Source: an uncultured Bacteroidales bacterium
Lineage (GTDB): Bacteria > Bacteroidota > Bacteroidia > Bacteroidales > FEN-979
Reading direction: 5' to 3'
Length of the DNA: 64,000 bases
Assembly: GCA_903915465.1 (NCBI GenBank)
Contig: CAIWTA010000120.1
Coordinates: 591-64,590, forward strand
The position numbers and the translations under genes are program-made. This document shows positions 2 to 8,851 of the stretch, in pieces. The first letter of the stretch is position 1; every line of letters begins with the position of its first letter. The notes beneath the pieces were generated by a model. It saw nothing but the letters and a program-made list of their open reading frames with translations, had not been told where the DNA came from and ran no database searches.

Positions 2-274
2 TTCGGGGATGAACCCTATTCAAAAGAGGAATTGGTCGCTGAGCTCTGTTCATCCCACCTTGCCGAGATCGCTCATCTGGAACTGAATATCCGAAACTCT
101 GCCGCTTATATCGCAGGTTGGGCATCAAAGCTCAGGGATAACCAGAAATGGATCCTCTGGGCGGCATCCAGGGCAGAGAAAGCCGCTGATCACATCCTGG
201 GAATCGTTTCCGAGGAACCCATTCCGTCTGATTCTTCAGAAGTTGAAACCCTTGAGCCTGCAATGGCTGGATAA
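2..274 (+). CDS. C-terminal part of an ArdC-like antirestriction / zincin-like metallopeptidase protein (5' end outside window)
   Basis: The frame is open from the window edge. FGDEPYSKEELVAELCSSHLAE...NSAAYIAGWASKLRDNQKWILWAASRAEKAADHIL resembles the conserved ArdC C-terminal block (EELVAEL..., SAAYI.sWl..Lk.d....f.AAs.AqkAAD). Confidence 0.6.
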   Translation, partial: FGDEPYSKEELVAELCSSHLAEIAHLELNIRNSAAYIAGWASKLRDNQKWILWAASRAEKAADHILGIVSEEPIPSDSSEVETLEPAMAG

Positions 275-1643: not shown

Positions 1644-2276
1644 ATGTCAGCAACTAACTATGAATACGATGTTTTTATCAGTTATAGAAGAACTGATACT
1701 GGGACTTTTTGGGTCAAGGAGTATTTTAAACCACGATTAGAGGAAGAAATACAACAAGCTTATGGAGGACCTGTTAAAATATTTTTCGATTCAGCTGATA
1801 TCCCAGTCGGTGCAAATTGGCCTAATACAATAAAAACAGCGTTGGCTACTTCACGTTGCATTGTCCCTGTGTTTTGTGGATTGTATTTTCAATCAGAGTG
1901 GTGTGTACGTGAGTTTGCGGTGTTTCATAATCGTCAGGAGATATTAAATCAGGGGAGAGTCATTAATCCTTATGAAATAATTCTCCCTGTTCTGGTAAGA
2001 GATGGCAATCACCTTCCACAGTCAGTCAATAGAATATTTAAATCTGTATTGAAAGATTATTTTACCGGTTGTGTTTCGTTTCGAACTTGCCCAGATTATA
2101 GAGATTTTGAAAGGGAGATTGTCAAACTTGCAGATGAAATTAGCAATGCGTTGAAAACGAAAACCCCAGTATGGGACAAGAGGTGGCTTTTAAATGAATG
2201 GTTAGATGAAGTCCCCATTAATCATTTTTTAAATCAAAGACCAGTTGTACTCCAAGAAAATCCTACATTAAAATGA
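1644..2276 (+). CDS. Stand-alone TIR domain protein
   Basis: YDVFISYRRTD start motif and SEWCVREF helix with a candidate catalytic Glu (codon 90, nt 1911-1913). The stop overlaps the next start (ATGA at 2273-2276). Confidence 0.85.
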   Translation: MSATNYEYDVFISYRRTDTGTFWVKEYFKPRLEEEIQQAYGGPVKIFFDSADIPVGANWPNTIKTALATSRCIVPVFCGLYFQSEWCVREFAVFHNRQEILNQGRVINPYEIILPVLVRDGNHLPQSVNRIFKSVLKDYFTGCVSFRTCPDYRDFEREIVKLADEISNALKTKTPVWDKRWLLNEWLDEVPINHFLNQRPVVLQENPTLK

Positions 2277-5149
2277 GCAATATAATTACTTTCTATTCAT
2301 ACAAAGGAGGCGTTGGAAGATCAATGGTTCTTGCCAACGTTGCAACGATGTTATCCAAATGGGGATTCAAAACCTTGATTGTCGATTTTGATTTGGAAGC
2401 CCCCGGTCTCCATTATTTTTTTAATTCTCAAATCAGAAATTTCAATGATCTTGGAAAAAGAAAGGGCATGTTGAATTTCTTAAATCAGGATCATAAGAAC
2501 CCTCGATTAAAATGGCAAGACCTTGTTGTTCCCATAATTATTCAACCAACTAGCAAGGAAAAAAACATCAATCCCAGTACAATTGATTTAATTCTTGCTG
2601 GTAACAAAGGTGAATCAAGTTATACCAATGAATTAAAGAAGTTTAATGCAAGAAATTTCTATAAGAACCATAATGGTAGTATGGTTATCGAAAAATTACG
2701 TGATGATTGGAAAAATAGCTATGATTTTATCCTTATTGATTCAAGAACTGGAGTCACAGATATTGGTGGAATATGCACTATTCAATTACCGGATATTCTC
2801 GCTACTTTGTTTACCGCAAATGAACAGGGTTGGATAGGAATAAAAGACATTACTGTTAAAGCAATAAAAAATCACAATGACATTCCTTTTGAAAGGGAAA
2901 GGTTAAAAGTTTTTCCCATTCCGACACGTATTGATAATACTGAAAAATTACTTACTGAAGAATGGCTTAAAAGATTTTCTGAAGAGGTAAAGTCAATTAT
3001 AGGCAATTGGATACATACTGAAATAAACATTAGGCAATTTATTGATAAAATTTATGTGCCTTATATCCCTTATTATAGCTTTGGTGAAAGACTTTCTGTT
3101 CTTGATGGTACATCAGATCCTAAGGGTATTGGCTATGCTTTAACAACAATAGCTTCATTACTTGCAAATAGATTAGTGGATAGCAAGCTGTTTTTTGATT
3201 CTCGTGATGAGTATATTCGGAAGATTGAAAATTCAATCAAAGAGAGACAGTCAGCAGAAATAATGAATGATAGTAGATTAAATACAGTTAAACTATCTGT
3301 TATTGGAGAATCCGCCTCAGGAAAATCCACATTAATAGACGCCTTGTTTTTCAATAATATTCAATCATATGATTTGGAGTCAACACATGGTTTAGAGACA
3401 ACAAAATATATTTTTAAATCAAAAAATGAAAATTACCGCATTAATATATGGGATTTTGGAGGGCAGGAAATTTATTCGGGCATCTATCAATTTTTCCTCA
3501 CAAAAGGATCGATAATATTGTTAGTGCTAGATTCTAGAAACATAGAACTCTCTTTACAAATCGAAAACTGGTTGGCAACCATAAATTTGTTAACAGAATC
3601 TAGTCAAATTTTTATATTCCTTAATGACAAAATAAAATCATCCAGACCCACTGGTTTCGATTCATTAATGTTTCAAAAAAATTATCCAAACGTTAAAGTG
3701 TTTACAGGAAGTATTCGTGAAACCGAGACAACTGAATTATTAAGAGATGAAATAGAAAAGGTTGTCACATCTTTTCCTTCTGTTATTATACCAAGGTCTT
3801 GGAGAAACATTCTAGACAAAATTGATAATATTGTTGATTCCTGCTCATATATTTCCCTCGCTGAATTTTCAAATATATGTAAAGAGTTTGGTGGAATTAA
3901 TGATAGTGATCAAGTGTTAGAAATAACTTCCTTATTTCATAGTAATGGTACTATAATTCATTATCAGGATGATTCTTATCTGAAAGATTATATTTTTATT
4001 CGTATAGGTTTAATAATAAAAGCTGTTTATAAAATATTTGAAGATAGTAATTTGATTAACGTTTCTAAAGGGTATTTTGATCAAAAGGACCTTGAAAAAA
4101 TTTTGAATGATGAGGAATTTAAGGACCTTCATTATGCAATTTTAAAATTAATGTTAAAATTTGAACTTGCTTATACATTTAATAATCAACAATTAGAGAA
4201 ATATCTTATTCCACAATTATTATCGCCAATACAACCCGATTATAATTGGGAATCGTTTAACACGTTGCACTTTATTTACCAATATGAAGTTGTTCCCAAG
4301 GGGCTACTAAATAAACTAATTATCAGGTTGCAGCATTTGATTACTGATTCTAAACTATTATGGAGAAATGGTTTTGTTGTAACATATGAAGAGAGCAAGG
4401 GTGAGGTTATTGAAGATTTTTCCAAAAGAAAAATTATGGTAAAAACTAATGGCATAAATAGTAAAAGCTTATTAATTAATATTTCAAATGAAATTGATAC
4501 GATTAACAATGAATACGCTTTGCTTAAATGTGAAAAATTGATACCATGTAATTGCAAAGAATGTCAATCAATAGAAAATCCATTCTATTTTAGTTATGCT
4601 ACTCTGAATAGTTATTTGCAGCACAAAATGCATGAGGTACCTTGTCCGAACTCATCTTTAATGATATCAATTCGAGATCTCATTGAACCATTTTCAAAAT
4701 TTGAAGTAGGTAAAAACAGAAAGAAATCACCAGTGAATATTTTCATATCATATGCTCATGAAGACCTTGATATGAAGAATAGTATTGAAAAATATTTATG
4801 GCCTCTTAAAAAAGATCAAAATGTTTCTATTTGGTTCGACCAGATGATTGAACCTGGAACAAATTGGAAAAATGAAATTCAACAAAAAATGTCAGATTCA
4901 GATATAATAATTTGCATTGTAAGTGCTGATTATTTAAGTAAAGATTATATTTGGGAATTGGAATTAAAAGATGCCTATGCGCGAAACAAAAAGATAATTC
5001 CAGTAATCTTAAGGCCTTGCCTTTGGGAGGATACCATTTTAAACAATTTTAGTGCGTTGCCTAATCAAGGAAAGCCGATTTCAAAATTTGAAGATAAAGA
5101 TGAAGCCTTCAATGAAATTGCGAAAAACCTAAAAATATTAATTGAATAG
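2273..5149 (+). CDS. Multidomain protein: KGGVGR-type ParA/MinD-like ATPase - Roc GTPase - COR - Cys cluster - TIR
   Basis: aa 1-300: SYKGGVGRS, VDFDLEAPGL, FILIDSRTG. aa 338-500: GESASGKST, WDFGGQE, LNDK. aa 505-755: COR-like (LFHSNGTIIHYQDD, LIPQLL, LWRNGFVV). aa 753-791: CxxxxxCxCxxC...C. aa 820-958: TIR (VNIFISYAHED, DYIWELEL). Confidence 0.85.
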   Translation: MSNIITFYSYKGGVGRSMVLANVATMLSKWGFKTLIVDFDLEAPGLHYFFNSQIRNFNDLGKRKGMLNFLNQDHKNPRLKWQDLVVPIIIQPTSKEKNINPSTIDLILAGNKGESSYTNELKKFNARNFYKNHNGSMVIEKLRDDWKNSYDFILIDSRTGVTDIGGICTIQLPDILATLFTANEQGWIGIKDITVKAIKNHNDIPFERERLKVFPIPTRIDNTEKLLTEEWLKRFSEEVKSIIGNWIHTEINIRQFIDKIYVPYIPYYSFGERLSVLDGTSDPKGIGYALTTIASLLANRLVDSKLFFDSRDEYIRKIENSIKERQSAEIMNDSRLNTVKLSVIGESASGKSTLIDALFFNNIQSYDLESTHGLETTKYIFKSKNENYRINIWDFGGQEIYSGIYQFFLTKGSIILLVLDSRNIELSLQIENWLATINLLTESSQIFIFLNDKIKSSRPTGFDSLMFQKNYPNVKVFTGSIRETETTELLRDEIEKVVTSFPSVIIPRSWRNILDKIDNIVDSCSYISLAEFSNICKEFGGINDSDQVLEITSLFHSNGTIIHYQDDSYLKDYIFIRIGLIIKAVYKIFEDSNLINVSKGYFDQKDLEKILNDEEFKDLHYAILKLMLKFELAYTFNNQQLEKYLIPQLLSPIQPDYNWESFNTLHFIYQYEVVPKGLLNKLIIRLQHLITDSKLLWRNGFVVTYEESKGEVIEDFSKRKIMVKTNGINSKSLLINISNEIDTINNEYALLKCEKLIPCNCKECQSIENPFYFSYATLNSYLQHKMHEVPCPNSSLMISIRDLIEPFSKFEVGKNRKKSPVNIFISYAHEDLDMKNSIEKYLWPLKKDQNVSIWFDQMIEPGTNWKNEIQQKMSDSDIIICIVSADYLSKDYIWELELKDAYARNKKIIPVILRPCLWEDTILNNFSALPNQGKPISKFEDKDEAFNEIAKNLKILIE

Positions 5150-5194
5150 TTATATATATTTCGATTAATCACCCTGAGAAACAATAATAAAATT

Positions 5195-5863
5195 ATGAAT
5201 TTTCTAATTGTTATGAGTATGACAAATAGCTATTATTTTTTTTTTAGCGATCAACAAGCTGAAACAAAATATTCAATTGAGCCACTTTGGTGGTTGTTAA
5301 TAATTGTAGCTGCTATTATCTTGGTTGGGGGTCTATATTGTTTTTTTAGTAGAAAGAAGTATCGGATTGTGAATATGGGCTTCGAGGTATCTGGAAGCCC
5401 CAAATTTACTTTTAATGTTGAAAGGAATACCCAAAATTTATATATAGCGAATCGCATCTATATGGAGTTAATTACTCGTAAAGCCGCACTTGAATTTGAA
5501 GAGGACAAAGATGTTATTATAGAAGTATATAATTCATGGTATAAACTATTTAACATTATTAGAGAAGAAATCAAAAATGTGCCTGGCGATTATTTAATAA
5601 ATCATGATTCATCAAAAGCTCTTATAGGTTTAACTGAAAAAATTTTAAACCTAGGCCTACGACCTCATTTAACAGCCTATCAGGTAAAATTTAGAAAATG
5701 GTATACTTCGGAAACAAAAAAGCTTACAAACATGAACCTTACTCCACAAGAAATTCAAAAAACGTATCCCTATTATGCTGATCTTGTTGTTGATTTGAAA
5801 AAAGTAAATAAAGTATTAATTGATTATTCAAAAGATTTATTAACTCTTATTCAGAAAAATTAG
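5195..5863 (+). CDS. Membrane-anchored protein of unknown function (one TM helix, helical C-terminal domain)
   Basis: 222-aa ORF 45 nt after the ROCO-TIR gene, with the same strand and AT-rich composition. TM helix LWWLLIIVAAIILVGGLYCFF is followed by SRKKYR. The start could be an internal Met. Confidence 0.6.
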   Translation: MNFLIVMSMTNSYYFFFSDQQAETKYSIEPLWWLLIIVAAIILVGGLYCFFSRKKYRIVNMGFEVSGSPKFTFNVERNTQNLYIANRIYMELITRKAALEFEEDKDVIIEVYNSWYKLFNIIREEIKNVPGDYLINHDSSKALIGLTEKILNLGLRPHLTAYQVKFRKWYTSETKKLTNMNLTPQEIQKTYPYYADLVVDLKKVNKVLIDYSKDLLTLIQKN

Positions 5864-6027
5864 TAGTATTGTAGTCTTTTTTTAATTATCTTCCTATAGA
5901 AATGTTTTCCATCGATTTGATTCAACGAGAATTTAGTTGTTTCATGCTTTTATGGATTTTAACTGATAGAAACTAGTCAATTATCTTTTCACGATTGAAA
6001 AATCACCTATTGCACTCTAATGTTATT

Positions 6028-6963
6028 TTACAAAATAGATGTATTAAAAATTATATTATCAAACAGTATCTTATTTCCAAATTTAGCGTAAAGTATTTTA
6101 TTTTCAGTTTCATCTAAATAGGTTCGACCAAGATCATCTTTTGCAATGCTTACTTGAATGCCTGAACTTTCTAATATCAAGACGTCTGGATTTATTAAAT
6201 AAGCTGCAGCAAGTGGATCCCATGCAAAATATAAATTATCATATATCCAATTCTCAACATTTTTAAGAATTGAGTATGTTATTTTGTTTTTTCTATTCTT
6301 CCATTTACTAAATACTAAATAGCTCTTATCAATTTTAATGGAATTAGACGCATCTAAAGGAACCAAAATAATATTTTTTAAATAGCTTAGACAAATCTTA
6401 GCTGCCAAAGGATCACAATAAAAGTTCCATTCTGAAAACCTGTTTTTTGTTTCATTAATTTCATTGTCGAAAAGATTTCCTTCAACACTAATTGCTCCAC
6501 CCATTATGATTGTGGTAATGGATCTGAGCTTTCCCATCCTATCATTAACAATAAGATTTTCAATATTTGTCAACGGTCCTAAAGTCAGTAGAAACTGATT
6601 ATTCGCTTTGAAAGAATTTAAAATATTTATAGCATCAAATTCTAGAATTCGTTTATTTCCTGAATTAATATTTAATACTTTATATCCTACTTCAGTTGAT
6701 TGCTGCTTCCAACTTTTAGGAAAGAAATTAGTCTTACCTAGTGAATCACTTTTGCCTATATAAATAGGGGTATTTATATGCCCATAATAATCTAGAAGTC
6801 TTCGAATTATTTGAGCACCATCCTTAGGTTCAGTCAACCCATGAACACATGACACACCTATAATTTCAATATTTCTTGAATTTAATAATAGATCTATGGC
6901 GATTAGATCATCAGTTCCACAATCGGTATCTATAAAGACATGTTTTACTTCAACTGAGCACAT
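6028..6963 (-). CDS. Inosine-uridine-preferring nucleoside hydrolase (IUNH) family protein
   Basis: N-terminal VFIDTDCGTDDLIAIDLLL matches the DxDxxxDD fingerprint of IUNH-family ribohydrolases. Length is 311 aa. Confidence 0.8.
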   Translation of the reverse strand: MCSVEVKHVFIDTDCGTDDLIAIDLLLNSRNIEIIGVSCVHGLTEPKDGAQIIRRLLDYYGHINTPIYIGKSDSLGKTNFFPKSWKQQSTEVGYKVLNINSGNKRILEFDAINILNSFKANNQFLLTLGPLTNIENLIVNDRMGKLRSITTIIMGGAISVEGNLFDNEINETKNRFSEWNFYCDPLAAKICLSYLKNIILVPLDASNSIKIDKSYLVFSKWKNRKNKITYSILKNVENWIYDNLYFAWDPLAAAYLINPDVLILESSGIQVSIAKDDLGRTYLDETENKILYAKFGNKILFDNIIFNTSIL

Positions 6964-7058
6964 AAATGGGTAGATAATTATGATTTTATATATTTAGAAG
7001 AATATTCTAAATTCGAGAGTAACATGAATTGTTATATTAAGTTGTAAAAATCAGTGAA

Positions 7059-8480
7059 TTAATCGAGTCTCCAGATTTTATTAATTTGCTGGAATTGCGT
7101 TATGATATAATCAAATGGTAAATTCTTTCCGATTTTTGCAATTTCAATATTTAGCACATTTGATGGGACAAGTAAGTCAGGATGACCCCATGGTCTTTCG
7201 ACTTCTTGTCTTGGACTAAAAATCCAAATTGTTTTAAGACCAAGATTTTTTGCAGGTATAATATCTTTTTCTAATGAGTCACTTATAATAGCTATTTCAT
7301 CAGGAGGGAAATTGAATTCTTCAATTACCTTAAGCAGCAATTCTATCTTTAGTCCTGTTTCATCTGTACTATCACCAGACACAATTAAATCAAATAGATC
7401 TGGTTTTAAATCAAGCAATTGCATTCTTAAATCGAGGGTAGAAGGGGAAGCGTTAGTAGCTATGGCTGTTTTAATTCCTTTTATTTTCGCTTTGAAAAGA
7501 TATTCCTGAACCCCAGGGAATAAATGGATATAGCGTGAATTTTCATAATGAACCCTTTTAAAATCTTTAAATGAAAGACCAAGGGTCAAGCAATGTTGGA
7601 GATAGTCGTACCATAACCTATCCTTTTTATCAAAAAGATCTTTTAGCCATTTGTGATATTCTTTAGCCTCTTCTTTATTTCTGGGTATACTAACGCACAA
7701 GGCATCATCAAATGAATCTTCTTCGACCAATGTTTTACGCCAATCGAAGATTATTAGTTTTGGCAAGGTTGGTGGTGTAAGATAAATATCGTGGTTATTG
7801 AGGTTAAAATTTGGTGAATATGTTACAATTTGCCAAATCCTTTCTTTAGATATTTGAGTATATGATGAAATTGCCTCAATACTAAAACGATTTTCACATA
7901 CTATTGCAAATTGTATTGCTGCCTCTTCAGGAAAAAGAAATGCTCTATTTTCCAAAGTAATTATTCCCAAATGAGCATCAGATTTAACATCAAAGAAGAG
8001 TTTTGGAGGGATTACTATTTTATTTAGTTTATCTATTCTGTCACTACGAAGAAATTGCTTTAGTAAATCAAACCTATTTATTGTAACCGTTGGTTTACCT
8101 TTAAGTTGCTGTACGAGTTTTTCCAAATTCAGCGAATAGTCATCACCAAATATGTCAAAACACTTTCTATGGGAAAGAATTGGAGGTAGGGGCACAAAAT
8201 CCAGTCTTGCAGGAATAACCTTTATTGTGGAATTGAGGTGTTCTTTCATTAAGGCAGTTGCCCATTCCTCTTGTATCCAATTATTTTTCTCAGTATTTTT
8301 TGAGAAAAAAACAAGTAAATATTTAGCATTATTTATAGCCTTCGAAATTGACAAAGGAATTGAATCTCCGAACAAAATCTCATCTTCATCAAGCCAAAAA
8401 TCAATATCATATAAACGTAAGTCCTTTGCGATTTTCCTTATTGCGTTTATGTCAGCTGATGCATGTGAGATAAATATCAT
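7059..8480 (-). CDS. TIR domain - linker - HAD-superfamily hydrolase-like fusion protein
   Basis: N-terminus MIFISHASAD...NNWIQEEW (TIR). C-terminus has LIIFDWRKT (HAD motif I with Arg at D+2), IATNAS (motif II) and ISDSLEKD (motif IV). Confidence 0.8.
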   Translation of the reverse strand: MIFISHASADINAIRKIAKDLRLYDIDFWLDEDEILFGDSIPLSISKAINNAKYLLVFFSKNTEKNNWIQEEWATALMKEHLNSTIKVIPARLDFVPLPPILSHRKCFDIFGDDYSLNLEKLVQQLKGKPTVTINRFDLLKQFLRSDRIDKLNKIVIPPKLFFDVKSDAHLGIITLENRAFLFPEEAAIQFAIVCENRFSIEAISSYTQISKERIWQIVTYSPNFNLNNHDIYLTPPTLPKLIIFDWRKTLVEEDSFDDALCVSIPRNKEEAKEYHKWLKDLFDKKDRLWYDYLQHCLTLGLSFKDFKRVHYENSRYIHLFPGVQEYLFKAKIKGIKTAIATNASPSTLDLRMQLLDLKPDLFDLIVSGDSTDETGLKIELLLKVIEEFNFPPDEIAIISDSLEKDIIPAKNLGLKTIWIFSPRQEVERPWGHPDLLVPSNVLNIEIAKIGKNLPFDYIITQFQQINKIWRLD

Positions 8481-8698
8481 ATGGGATTTTTTATCAATAT
8501 TATTGTTTTATAACATTTTACATGGTAAATTTATAGAAATTTTATTGTGAATATCCAAATTCTTTATAACTATTTATATAGACCTATTAGCATAATCCTT
8601 GTATTAACCTGATTAATATATTTAAGGAATTTTGCCCTTCTTAATTCTCGAATTACACTTACACTTCGACTTCACTTTGTAAAAGGAAATTATATATT

Positions 8699-8722
8699 TT
8701 TGGATACCCATTTGGATACCCA
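8699..8722. repeat. Tandem 12-mer tttggataccca x2
   Basis: Exact tandem duplication immediately distal to the tRNA-Leu terminator, at the island edge. Confidence 0.8.
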
Positions 8723-8754
8723 AAAAAGAAAAACCCACGATTGACGTGGGTTTT
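8721..8754 (-). terminator. Rho-independent terminator of tRNA-Leu
   Basis: On the minus strand: AAACCCACG, loop TCAAT, CGTGGGTTT, then TTCTTTTTT. Confidence 0.65.
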
Positions 8755-8767
8755 AGTGGTGTTTTCG

Positions 8768-8851
8768 TACCCGGAGCCGGAATCGAACCGGCACGAGATT
8801 ACTCTCATTGGTTTTTGAGACCAACGCGTCTACCTATTCCGCCATCCGGGC
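8768..8851 (-). tRNA. tRNA-Leu (anticodon CAA), type II with long variable arm, no encoded CCA
   Basis: Reverse complement is GCCCGGATGGCGGAATAGGTAGACGCGTTGGTCTCAAAACCAATGAGAGTAATCTCGTGCCGGTTCGATTCCGGCTCCGGGTA. It has an acceptor stem, D loop, anticodon stem TTGGT/ACCAA with loop CTCAAAA, and T arm GGTTCGATTCC. Confidence 0.9.

Follow-up and report, generated by a model that had tools for sequence, protein, structure and literature searches.

In the effectors of type III-A retrons (Retron-Eco11), a PRTase domain is followed by a C-terminal winged HTH, and the effector depletes PRPP. ShosT, the toxin of ShosTA, joins a HAD-type pyrophosphatase to a PRTase, and the substrate of this hydrolase is a phosphoanhydride (PPi), not a monoester. 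Among TIR proteins, AbTir (catalytic Glu E208) and BtTir (catalytic Glu E230) are producers of 2'cADPR, and XopQ, which has the IUNH fold (PF01156), is a 2'cADPR O-glycosidase that turns 2'cADPR into ADPR and switches off type VI Thoeris. Among Thoeris systems, type VIII (CMP hydrolase) and type XI (HIT hydrolase) are examples of nucleotide hydrolases acting as TIR-linked effectors. The accessible part of a systematic survey of TIR systems published in 2025 has no HAD, PF00702, PF13419 or PF01156 entry, and HAD and IUNH are both absent from the effector list given there, in agreement with the original prediction for the locus described below, according to which no HAD or IUNH partners are known in named TIR systems.

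That prediction concerned a 64,000-nt stretch of DNA from an uncultured Bacteroidales bacterium (contig CAIWTA010000120.1; hereafter the window), in which a TIR–HAD fusion and an IUNH-family nucleoside hydrolase were proposed to form one NAD/nucleotide-processing module. The domains, the candidate catalytic residues and the defence-island setting hold, but the single module is without comparative support. The reading that we favour, with a probability of about one half, is that the two are neighbouring cargo genes, that the fusion would be a self-contained NAD+-consuming effector and the hydrolase a purine nucleosidase, and that their pairing is peculiar to this island and a matter of juxtaposition.

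Organization of the locus

The features considered here are the following, numbered from the first nucleotide of the window.

32–274, plus strand: 3'-terminal part of an ArdC-like anti-restriction gene of the mobile-element backbone, GC 0.52 (phrog_7245, 8.6e-10)
1644–5863, plus strand: neighbouring three-gene operon in the same low-GC block, encoding a TIR protein of 210 aa, a 958-aa protein and a 222-aa protein
5864–6027: spacer of 164 nt across which the plus-strand operon and the minus-strand pair converge with their 3' ends
6028–6963, minus strand: gene for an IUNH-family, IAG-NH-like nucleoside hydrolase of 311 aa, no signal peptide (Pfam PF01156, PDB relatives, A3 alignment)
6964–7058, minus strand: AT-rich intergenic spacer of 95 nt, GC 0.21
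7059–8480, minus strand: fusion gene TIR–linker–winged-helix-like–HAD, 473 aa (ORF, Pfam, AF2)
7062–7760, minus strand: HAD subfamily-IA-like domain, residues 241–473 (A1 invariants, family profile against PH1655, Foldseek)
7776–7973, minus strand: small winged-helix-like domain, residues about 170–235 (AF2)
7974–8099, minus strand: low-confidence linker, probably disordered, residues about 128–169 (AF2)
8100–8480, minus strand: TIR domain, residues 1–127, with W68 and the catalytic-type Glu E72 (codon 8265–8267) (Pfam, PDB alignment, A5)
8767–8851, minus strand: tRNA-Leu(CAA), right edge of the island (ARAGORN, Rfam)

Both open reading frames are confirmed at these coordinates, and ORFs and Pfam agree with the predicted arrangement of a 473-aa TIR–HAD protein and an IUNH gene on the minus strand with a 95-nt gap between them. 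The arrangement had also been called convergent, which applies to the pair relative to the plus-strand operon, but not to the two genes themselves, which are co-directional and in tandem. They share the GC content of the cassette, and no intrinsic terminator is predicted between them, a layout that fits one transcription unit. A sigma-70 promoter scan gave nothing above shuffled expectation, the Bacteroidota TAnnTTTG promoter motif has no clear instance in the 95-nt gap, and a remnant of a signal peptide is found neither in the gap nor in another frame.

The five cassette genes have GC contents of 0.29–0.36, below the 0.41 of the host and the 0.46–0.52 of the backbone, and in a relative (L186) an identical tRNA-Leu/prs junction occurs without the island. 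Because of the low cassette GC, the tRNA-Leu at the edge, the ArdC-like gene on the left and the empty junction in L186, we conclude that the five-gene block is mobile-element cargo adjoining tRNA-Leu, and tRNA-Leu(CAA) is the likely integration site of the island. The ArdC-like gene is full length (ArdcN+MPTase-PolyVal) on the ENA contig beyond the window. No att-type direct repeat of the tRNA end is found inside the window, since the left end of the element falls outside it. In the favoured reading, the fusion and IUNH genes would be adjacent pieces of cargo in this TIR-rich cassette.

In the plus-strand operon, the 958-aa protein has the architecture KGGVGR-ATPase/Roc/COR-A/COR-B/TIR, and the 222-aa protein has a hydrophobic N-terminal stretch. 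A genome scan for the 958-aa protein returned no close relative, a plasmid tblastn search gave partial matches only, at loci without HAD or IUNH, and a literature search found no paper on KGGVGR or on PRTase-CE. We treat the operon as context for the TIR–HAD/IUNH pair, not as a demonstrated part of it. Unlike type III-A retrons, which consist of an RT, an msr/msd ncRNA and a PRTase, the island has no RT domain among its proteins (Pfam) and no retron ncRNA, the Rfam scan giving tRNA only. The island likewise contains no ShosA/DprA antitoxin, no PRTase and no PADLOC ShosT match.

The TIR domain

Pfam TIR_2 spans residues 2–123 of the fusion over the full model (1–122; E 3.5e-22). The Pfam matches of both proteins (TIR_2, HAD_2/Hydrolase and IU_nuc_hydro) lie so far above the curated cut-offs that they are not due to chance. 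The AF2 model of the 473-aa fusion has a mean pLDDT of 88, and residues 1–130 adopt a TIR fold with pLDDT 84–96 (10-residue block means). The best solved relatives of this half are BtTir (7UXR) and AbTir (7UWG, 8G83). Within the segment NNWIQEEW (residues 66–73), W68 and E72 align with Trp204 and Glu208 of the AbTir W-x-x-x-E motif, E72 is likewise aligned with the Glu of this motif in BtTir, and both residues are invariant in an alignment of the closest TIR relatives (A5). E72 is thus found where it had been predicted, as are D246 and DTDCGTDD, discussed below. The domain also matches the retron-TIR and Thoeris TIR models. To judge from its sequence, the TIR half is of the NADase type with an intact catalytic Glu, and its NAD+ chemistry is inferred from homology. 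The position of the domain differs from that in AbTir and BtTir, where a coiled coil precedes a C-terminal TIR; the window protein instead starts with its TIR, and a winged-helix-like and a HAD domain come after it.

The nucleoside hydrolase

IU_nuc_hydro (PF01156) is the only domain of the 311-aa protein and covers residues 9–288 (E 8.6e-39). The fingerprint DTDCGTDD occupies residues 12–19 (6907–6930), and its D12/D14/D18/D19 cluster, the DxDxxxDD motif that in this family provides the Ca2+ site and the general base, is invariant in the clade alignment (A3); W85, N163, E178, N180 and W248-D249 are further conserved residues. The best solved relatives are trypanosomal IAG-NH structures (4I71, 1HOZ; clade profile E 2.5e-35), with which the window protein shares the Asp cluster, Asn163, Glu178/Asn180 and both Trp residues, W85 falling on the FPTEW motif of 4I71 and W248-D249 on its AWD motif. 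We take W85 and W248 to be the aromatic pair of the IAG-NH type, and the Asn and Glu residues to be ribose binding. In contrast to the trypanosomal enzyme, to which its identity is low, the window protein is bacterial and belongs to a clade that otherwise carries lipoprotein-type signal peptides. These comparisons identify it as a probable cytoplasmic copy of an IAG-NH-like, purine-type nucleosidase, which would most likely hydrolyse purine ribosides.

The seven closest relatives all have lipoprotein-type signal peptides, look exported and lie in ordinary chromosomal contexts of housekeeping type, and the window protein is the only member of its 47–55% clade without a signal peptide. This loss could reflect adaptation to a partner in the cytoplasm. 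In the wider family, where 119 proteins including the window copy were screened, 28 N-termini are short and 58 signal-like. The catalytic and purine-stacking residues that were checked are the same in the window copy and in the exported-looking relatives (the first Trp is missing only in P0008), and active-site remodelling is therefore not visible in the window protein.

With XopQ on 2'cADPR as a model, the IUNH protein might instead hydrolyse the ribosyl bond in a cyclic ADPR-type signal, made by the TIR of the fusion or by the TIRs of the neighbouring operon, and so set a threshold or reset the system. XopQ and HopQ1 belong to the same Pfam family as the window protein, the nearest solved TIRs make 2'cADPR, three TIR-domain proteins are encoded within 7 kb of the IUNH gene, and the protein is cytoplasmic, unlike the rest of its clade. 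However, XopQ is a secreted plant-pathogen effector, and the window protein, with no evident remodelling of its active site, remains close to IAG-NH: at E ≤ 0.01, the clade profile retrieved IAG-NH, IU-NH and RihA/B chains from the PDB and none named XopQ or HopQ1. The product type of the TIR cannot be read at about 30–35% identity, and the linkage tests described below, which include relatives of the KGGVGR system, speak against signal clearing as well; we judge it the least probable of the readings considered here.

As in Thoeris (types I–XI), the window has a TIR protein beside a hydrolase directed at small molecules or nucleotides. In Thoeris, however, the conserved pair consists of a TIR and an effector with a signal-sensing domain, whereas the window genes form no pair that is conserved in the loci described below, and the window IUNH is a single-domain protein. 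A role of the IUNH as a signal-activated Thoeris-like effector was rejected because the protein has no sensor.

The winged-helix-like and HAD domains

The original description of the fusion as TIR plus HAD is correct for both domains but incomplete, since a linker and a winged-helix-like domain lie between them. The linker has AF2 pLDDT below 50 at residues 130–149 and 159–168. It is followed by a beta-hairpin/three-helix/beta-hairpin domain, with strands at residues 171–176 and 179–184, helices at 185–196, 201–208 and 212–221, and strands at 225–228 and 231–234. This AF2 topology is winged-helix-like, and the design would then resemble that of type III-A retron effectors, in which a winged helix follows the effector head, but the head is a TIR and an extra HAD domain is present. 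The winged-helix-like region is common to relatives in the HAD-tail family, for which HMMER matches begin at query residues 96–200. It has no direct sequence match to retron models, and the link is a transitive one through the relative P0122, the middle region being covered by PDLC02933.

Pfam matches to HAD are found at residues 241–420 (HAD_2, 8.5e-15; Hydrolase, 1.9e-14), and the top Foldseek matches of the domain are 4YGQ, 2HOQ and dehalogenases. Motif I reads F-D246-W-R248-K-T250 (FDWRKT from residue 245), with D246 as the nucleophile. The nucleophile Asp is conserved in the A1 alignment, where T342 (motif II) and K378 (motif III) are invariant. The Lys-Asp of motif IV is invariant in the A2 alignment and sits within S400-D401-S-L-E-K-D406, and the domain contains the cap motif W290-Y-D292-Y293. 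The Asp+2 general acid/base is absent, its place being taken by R248 in the window protein and by Ser, Thr or Ala in the relatives; when the family profile 'ifdWsdtlvd' is aligned to 'FFDLDDTLVD' of PH1655, DWS stands against DLD. Because Asp+2 is missing, phosphatase activity of the tail cannot be assumed, which weakens the earlier assignment of the HAD domain as a phosphatase. The family-wide loss sets a HAD subgroup apart.

ShosT resembles the fusion in that a HAD-superfamily hydrolase is joined to an effector of ribosyl-transfer type, but its domain order is reversed, it has no winged helix, and the partner is a PRTase. This defence toxin lends some support to the stepwise scheme of the original prediction, in which the three activities encoded by the pair would act in series. 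The TIR would cleave NAD(P)+ to nicotinamide and ADPR-type products, the HAD domain would dephosphorylate mononucleotides (NMN/NaMN or AMP) or remove the 2'-phosphate from NADP-derived products, and the IUNH would split ribosides into base and ribose, such that NAD+ is drained and salvage is blocked, for example against phages that rebuild NAD+. A HAD enzyme followed by an IUNH enzyme is also the order of the yeast route from NMN via NR to nicotinamide, which uses the HAD nucleotidases Isn1/Sdt1 and then the IUNH-family Urh1. The adjacency of the two genes on one strand, the 95-nt gap without a predicted terminator, their common low GC and the lack of a signal peptide, by which the IUNH and the fusion come to share a compartment, are all consistent with such a scheme. 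On the other hand, the HAD domain lacks the acid/base used by phosphomonoesterases and 5'-nucleotidases, and its occurrence behind PRTase, GT2 and HTH heads argues that it is not tailored to TIR products. Furthermore, the features of the IUNH are not those of pyrimidine- or NR-type enzymes, its Trp pair being the purine-stacking one of IAG-NH. ADPR itself contains no phosphomonoester, a Nudix step is not encoded, and the three families never co-occur elsewhere in the loci examined. Stepwise demolition of NAD+ is thus unlikely, although it merits more weight than signal clearing.

A tail family with exchanged heads

The closest relatives of the tail match query residues about 170–470, and their heads are PF24390 PRTase-CE, HTH_3/HTH_31 or GT2 domains, or none that is recognised. 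The PRTase-CE–winged-helix–HAD proteins (e.g., P0122, P0125, P0129 and P0132; loci L016–L018) share with the window protein a tail of ~30% identity over query residues about 96/170–470, a motif I of the form F-D-W-S/T/A-x-T without Asp+2, the WYDY cap, and the invariant residues C262, T342, R352, K378, W419 and G432. They differ from it in having a PRTase (PF24390) head and not a TIR, and in having no IUNH or TIR neighbour. These heads hit the PADLOC models for PRTase_III-A with values of 1e-46 to 1e-53. Among the best 150 matches from 1.84 billion representative proteins, the window protein is the sole TIR-headed version, and no second protein matches both the TIR and the HAD halves. Word-index searches with the full fusion and with the module alignment, which were dominated by generic HAD and TIR words, found only the query and two family members. 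A locus search with the tight A2 alignment gave 1 good genomic and 5 metagenomic loci, and in a search of viral contigs neither the IUNH clade nor the HAD module had a relative.

Based on these relatives, the window fusion can be described as a head swap, with a TIR in place of the PRTase head on a rare tail family whose members mostly carry PRTase heads of the retron III-A type. In the favoured reading, this would be a one-off event in which an AbTir/BtTir-like TIR was acquired, and the resulting protein would most likely consume NAD+ as a self-contained effector. Because the heads are chemically unrelated and Asp+2 is missing, the HAD tail would more likely be a regulatory or ligand-handling module, or a hydrolase of phosphoanhydrides or activated phosphates, than a classical phosphomonoesterase trimming the TIR product; for the regulatory role, the argument is one from architecture. 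The exchange of a rare winged-helix and HAD tail between two effector heads used by retrons, PRTase and TIR, points to a portable module with a regulatory or processing role in effectors that deplete metabolites.

Members of the tail family without an effector head, or with an HTH head only, have unremarkable surroundings (glycosyltransferases, GGDEF, rhamnosidase) and match nothing in PADLOC. Together with the housekeeping-type relatives of the IUNH and the presence of both cytoplasmic-like and exported-like forms in its wider family, they give some support to a locus without a role in defence, where the IUNH would be a metabolic passenger that serves purine or ribose salvage and whose export signal was lost through drift, and the TIR–HAD protein a non-immune enzyme or regulator. 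We consider this quite improbable, as the TIR retains its catalytic Glu and has active NADases and the retron and Thoeris TIR models as its nearest matches, the sister architecture bears a bona fide retron effector head, and the genes lie in a foreign low-GC block with two more TIR proteins, on a mobile element with an anti-restriction gene.

Linkage in other genomes

Linkage of TIR–HAD and IUNH genes in other genomes, as a common module would have it, was sought in family-level co-occurrence tests in which the positive controls worked. No HAD module and a single, distant TIR were present at the 87 IUNH loci, neither IUNH nor TIR at the 7 HAD-module loci, and neither IUNH nor HAD at the 80 TIR-relative loci; an IUNH is likewise missing from the relatives of the KGGVGR system next door. 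Locus L038, where a TIR lies ~4 kb from an IUNH gene on the opposite strand, was rejected as support for TIR/IUNH linkage. No linkage is thus seen at any of the loci covered, and the pairing would be peculiar to this island lineage, a juxtaposition and not a module that is conserved. As the fusion itself is a singleton and the combination exists in one lineage, however, the missing linkage weighs little against a TIR–HAD/IUNH module.

The tandem layout with its 95-nt gap, the loss of the signal peptide, and the activity of XopQ on the TIR product 2'cADPR count against mere juxtaposition. A new two-gene TIR system may be envisaged, consisting of the TIR–wHTH–HAD protein and a re-targeted, cytoplasmic IAG-NH-type nucleosidase, in which the AbTir-like TIR would generate an ADPR-type product such as 2'cADPR from NAD(P)+, and the atypical HAD and the IUNH would process it. 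The outcome would be either the destruction of NAD-derived and purine ribosides, so that an infected cell does not rebuild its pools, or a built-in off-switch similar to XopQ; taken as one reading with both outcomes, this is doubtful, ranking slightly below stepwise demolition and above a locus without a defence role. In such a system, a bacterial TIR would for the first time have a host-encoded IUNH as its partner, and a TIR would for the first time be fused to a HAD. If the pair cooperates, HAD and IUNH would join the enzyme classes downstream of bacterial TIR domains, and XopQ, an effector of pathogens, would have a counterpart on the host side. At present the finding is a single-lineage curiosity and not a demonstrated system. 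In the favoured reading of juxtaposed cargo genes, any cooperation between fusion and IUNH would be local to this island; the pair is seen on four contigs, all of which carry the same island with the same gene order.

Gene pair and linkage

A TIR–HAD fusion gene and a nucleoside hydrolase (IUNH) gene had been placed on the minus strand by the original prediction, in exact agreement with the ORF coordinates. Facing the pair in convergent orientation is a plus-strand operon, and together they form a block of five low-GC genes.

Features of the block and its flanks
32–274, plus strand: leftmost ORF, coding for the C-terminal part of an ArdC-like anti-restriction protein (phrog_7245 match)
1644–5863, plus strand: three-gene operon for a TIR protein (210 aa), a KGGVGR-ATPase/Roc/COR/TIR protein (958 aa) and a further protein (222 aa)
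6028–6963, minus strand: IUNH gene, 311 aa (ORF; Pfam IU_nuc_hydro)
7059–8480, minus strand: TIR–HAD gene, 473 aa (ORF; Pfam TIR_2 and HAD_2/Hydrolase)
Right edge of the block: tRNA-Leu(CAA)

The best explanation, with a probability of about 50%, is that the two genes lie side by side in a foreign cassette rich in TIR proteins. A head swap would have made the fusion, a singleton variant of an NAD+-consuming effector; the IUNH would be a nucleosidase of purine type in a cytoplasmic copy, and the pairing would be specific to one lineage, the only one in which the pair was found. Every enzymatic statement on the two proteins is drawn from homology.

Linkage was evaluated with local HMMs for TIR, IUNH, generic HAD and the HAD module (the winged-helix-like and HAD tail of the fusion), scanned against six-frame ORFs of every fetched locus; in positive controls, all expected genes were recovered. 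Very divergent HADs could escape the generic HAD model, which is narrow.

Genes detected within about 10 kb of relatives
IUNH relatives (87 loci, most only 25–35% identical to the query): no HAD module; one TIR, about 4 kb off on the opposite strand
HAD-module relatives (7 loci): no IUNH, no TIR; varied neighbours
Closest TIR relatives (80 loci, 1.16 Mb): no IUNH, no HAD, no TIR+HAD fusion
Background prs loci (80 loci, 1.33 Mb): no TIR, no IUNH, one generic HAD

The linkage expected from the original prediction, which joined the pair in an NAD- or nucleotide-processing module, was thus not found in these 87, 7 and 80 relative loci. The accessible portion of a survey from 2025, which covered TIR signalling systems of bacteria systematically, describes CMP-hydrolase and HIT-hydrolase effectors, and contains no occurrence of HAD, PF00702, PF13419 or PF01156. 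Co-orientation, the 95-nt spacer without a predicted terminator, shared composition and a lost signal peptide are suggestive, but only suggestive, of coupling between the two genes, and it is unlikely that they would form a module for stepwise demolition of NAD and nucleotides.

The fusion protein and its relatives

Pfam assigns TIR_2 to residues 2–123 (E 3.5e-22) and HAD_2/Hydrolase to residues 241–420 (E about 1e-14). In an AlphaFold2 model (mean pLDDT 88), the TIR domain (residues 1–127) is followed by a low-confidence linker (about 130–168), a small hairpin/three-helix/hairpin domain of winged-helix topology (about 170–235), and the HAD domain (241–473). The TIR domain is closest to BtTir (7UXR) and AbTir (7UWG, 8G83), both of which make 2'cADPR. 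Trp68 and Glu72 align with Trp204 and Glu208 of AbTir, and since the latter is the catalytic glutamate, Glu72, proposed earlier, is the right candidate.

In fold, the HAD half resembles subfamily-IA HADs (4YGQ, 2HOQ and dehalogenases). Asp246, named as an active-site residue in the original prediction, is the motif-I nucleophile, and Thr342, Lys378 and an acidic motif IV are present. HAD phosphatases use the Asp two residues past the nucleophile as general acid/base. This position is Arg248 in the fusion and Ser, Thr or Ala in all relatives, where the family DWS aligns with DLD of PH1655. Because this Asp is replaced, taking the domain for a phosphatase on account of its HAD family is unsafe.

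Among the best 150 matches from an exhaustive HMMER search (1.84 billion representative proteins), no other protein covered both halves. The best matches (85–126 bits, about 30% identity) cover only the winged-helix-like region and HAD domain (residues about 96/170–470), and form a rare family with the signatures F-D-W-S-x-T, a WYDY cap motif, and invariant Cys262, Arg352, Lys378, Trp419 and Gly432. Their N-termini carry PRTase-CE (PF24390) in five cases, HTH_3/HTH_31 in two and a GT2 glycosyltransferase in one, the remainder having no recognised domain there. The PRTase heads match PADLOC PRTase_III-A (E 1e-46 to 1e-53), a type III-A retron effector with a PRTase and a winged HTH, whose activation depletes PRPP. 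The defence toxin ShosT is a HAD-type pyrophosphatase fused to a PRTase, and the TIR in the window also matches retron-TIR models. The family is most simply read in terms of a head swap, with TIR in place of PRTase on a common winged-helix and HAD tail. Because this tail is common to chemically unrelated heads and lacks the Asp+2 residue, its architecture makes a role in regulation or ligand handling, or in the hydrolysis of activated phosphates or anhydrides, more likely than phosphomonoesterase trimming of TIR products.

The closest HAD-module relative (P0121) has Gly for the nucleophile Asp (LGWKNTL) and a divergent C-terminus; the protein is inactive, or else the gene call is damaged. At the HAD-module locus L008 (6350–13191), two ORFs on the same strand appear to be parts of one aldehyde dehydrogenase, separated by a segment of roughly 5 kb with PIN, CHAP, HAD-module and class-B acid phosphatase genes; this segment may have been inserted, bringing the HAD-module gene with it.

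The nucleoside hydrolase

IU_nuc_hydro spans residues 9–288 of the IUNH (E 8.6e-39), which by sequence groups with the purine-specific trypanosome IAG-NH enzymes (77 bits alone, E 2.5e-35 by clade profile). It has the Asp cluster (Asp12, Asp14, Asp18, Asp19), Asn163, Glu178/Asn180, and the Trp positions Trp85 and Trp248-Asp249; these are invariant in its clade except for Trp85, missing from one relative (P0008). A XopQ-like role in clearing a TIR signal is made somewhat more attractive by the 2'cADPR product of the nearest solved TIRs, since XopQ cleaves this molecule; the clade profile search gave no XopQ/HopQ1-named chain at E ≤ 0.01, and we regard this role as decidedly unlikely. A phage protein family of unknown function (PHROGs phrog_8702) matches the IUNH (E 1.9e-18), and in view of the XopQ result IUNH homologues from phages might be considered as enzymes that cleave TIR signals; in viral contigs, close relatives of the clade were not found.

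The clade is small (47–55% identity), followed by a gap to about 35%. All seven relatives begin with a hydrophobic lipoprotein-like signal sequence, and the window IUNH is the sole member without one: it begins at the lipobox Cys position, no upstream extension is possible, and the upstream gap holds no signal-peptide remnant. Among 119 proteins screened from the wider match list, window copy included, 58 have signal-like and 28 short N-termini; since both kinds occur, the switch is not unique to the window. Clade relatives with readable contexts adjoin efflux pumps, PBP1, a peptide-release-factor-family gene and methyltransferases, with no TIR or HAD gene nearby. That the pair has no defence role at all is quite unlikely.

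The adjoining operon and the island

The 210-aa TIR protein is FxsC_Nterm-like (4e-16), and its gene overlaps the next by 4 nt. The 958-aa product combines a KGGVGR-motif ATPase, a Roc GTPase, COR-A/COR-B and a C-terminal TIR (PADLOC ThsB1, 4e-31), a ROCO–TIR architecture that looks unusual; the third protein has a hydrophobic N-terminal stretch and no family match. No close relative turned up in species-representative genomes. Relatives of the ATPase lie in one five-TIR locus and one caspase locus, neither with HAD or IUNH, and multi-TIR loci seem typical of the family. In the former, on Sinorhizobium chiapasense plasmid pSchITTGS70c (L104, 32865–47785), five TIR-domain genes surround the gene of a KGGVGR-ATPase/TIR protein that shares 40% identity with the N-terminus of the 958-aa protein. 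In a metagenome copy of the island (L102, 2746–5568), the gene call for the 958-aa protein gives 940 aa, and 36 nt separate it from the TIR gene upstream, in place of the 4-nt overlap; a start-site or frameshift difference between copies may account for this.

GC content is 0.29–0.36 in the five-gene block, compared with 0.46–0.52 in the left-hand genes and 0.41 in the rest of the window. The window opens within the ArdC-like gene, present in full on the ENA contig (304 aa, ArdcN+MPTase-PolyVal), so that its first base already belongs to a conjugative or mobilisable element, the left end of which lies off-window. Prs has its best match, only about 72% identical, in an uncultured Bacteroidales. 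At one relative locus (L186), tRNA-Leu joins prs in the same way, and the sequence upstream has no low-GC block and no TIR, IUNH or HAD-module genes. Based on the low GC, the tRNA-Leu edge, the ArdC-like gene and this island-free junction, the block is mobile-element cargo integrated at or next to tRNA-Leu. Three further metagenome contigs carry the same island with gene order kept; these are copies of one lineage and not independent evidence.

Two copies of a 65-nt direct repeat (72% identity; 281–345 and 870–934), in the part of the element backbone with higher GC, lie directly upstream of two small ORFs, 340–555 (zinc-finger-like, 71 aa) and 929–1366 (145 aa), and may be a duplicated regulatory region. 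Close below tRNA-Leu, between it and the TIR–HAD promoter region, two terminator-like hairpins, one of them bidirectional, stand back to back at 8697–8754 (minus strand).
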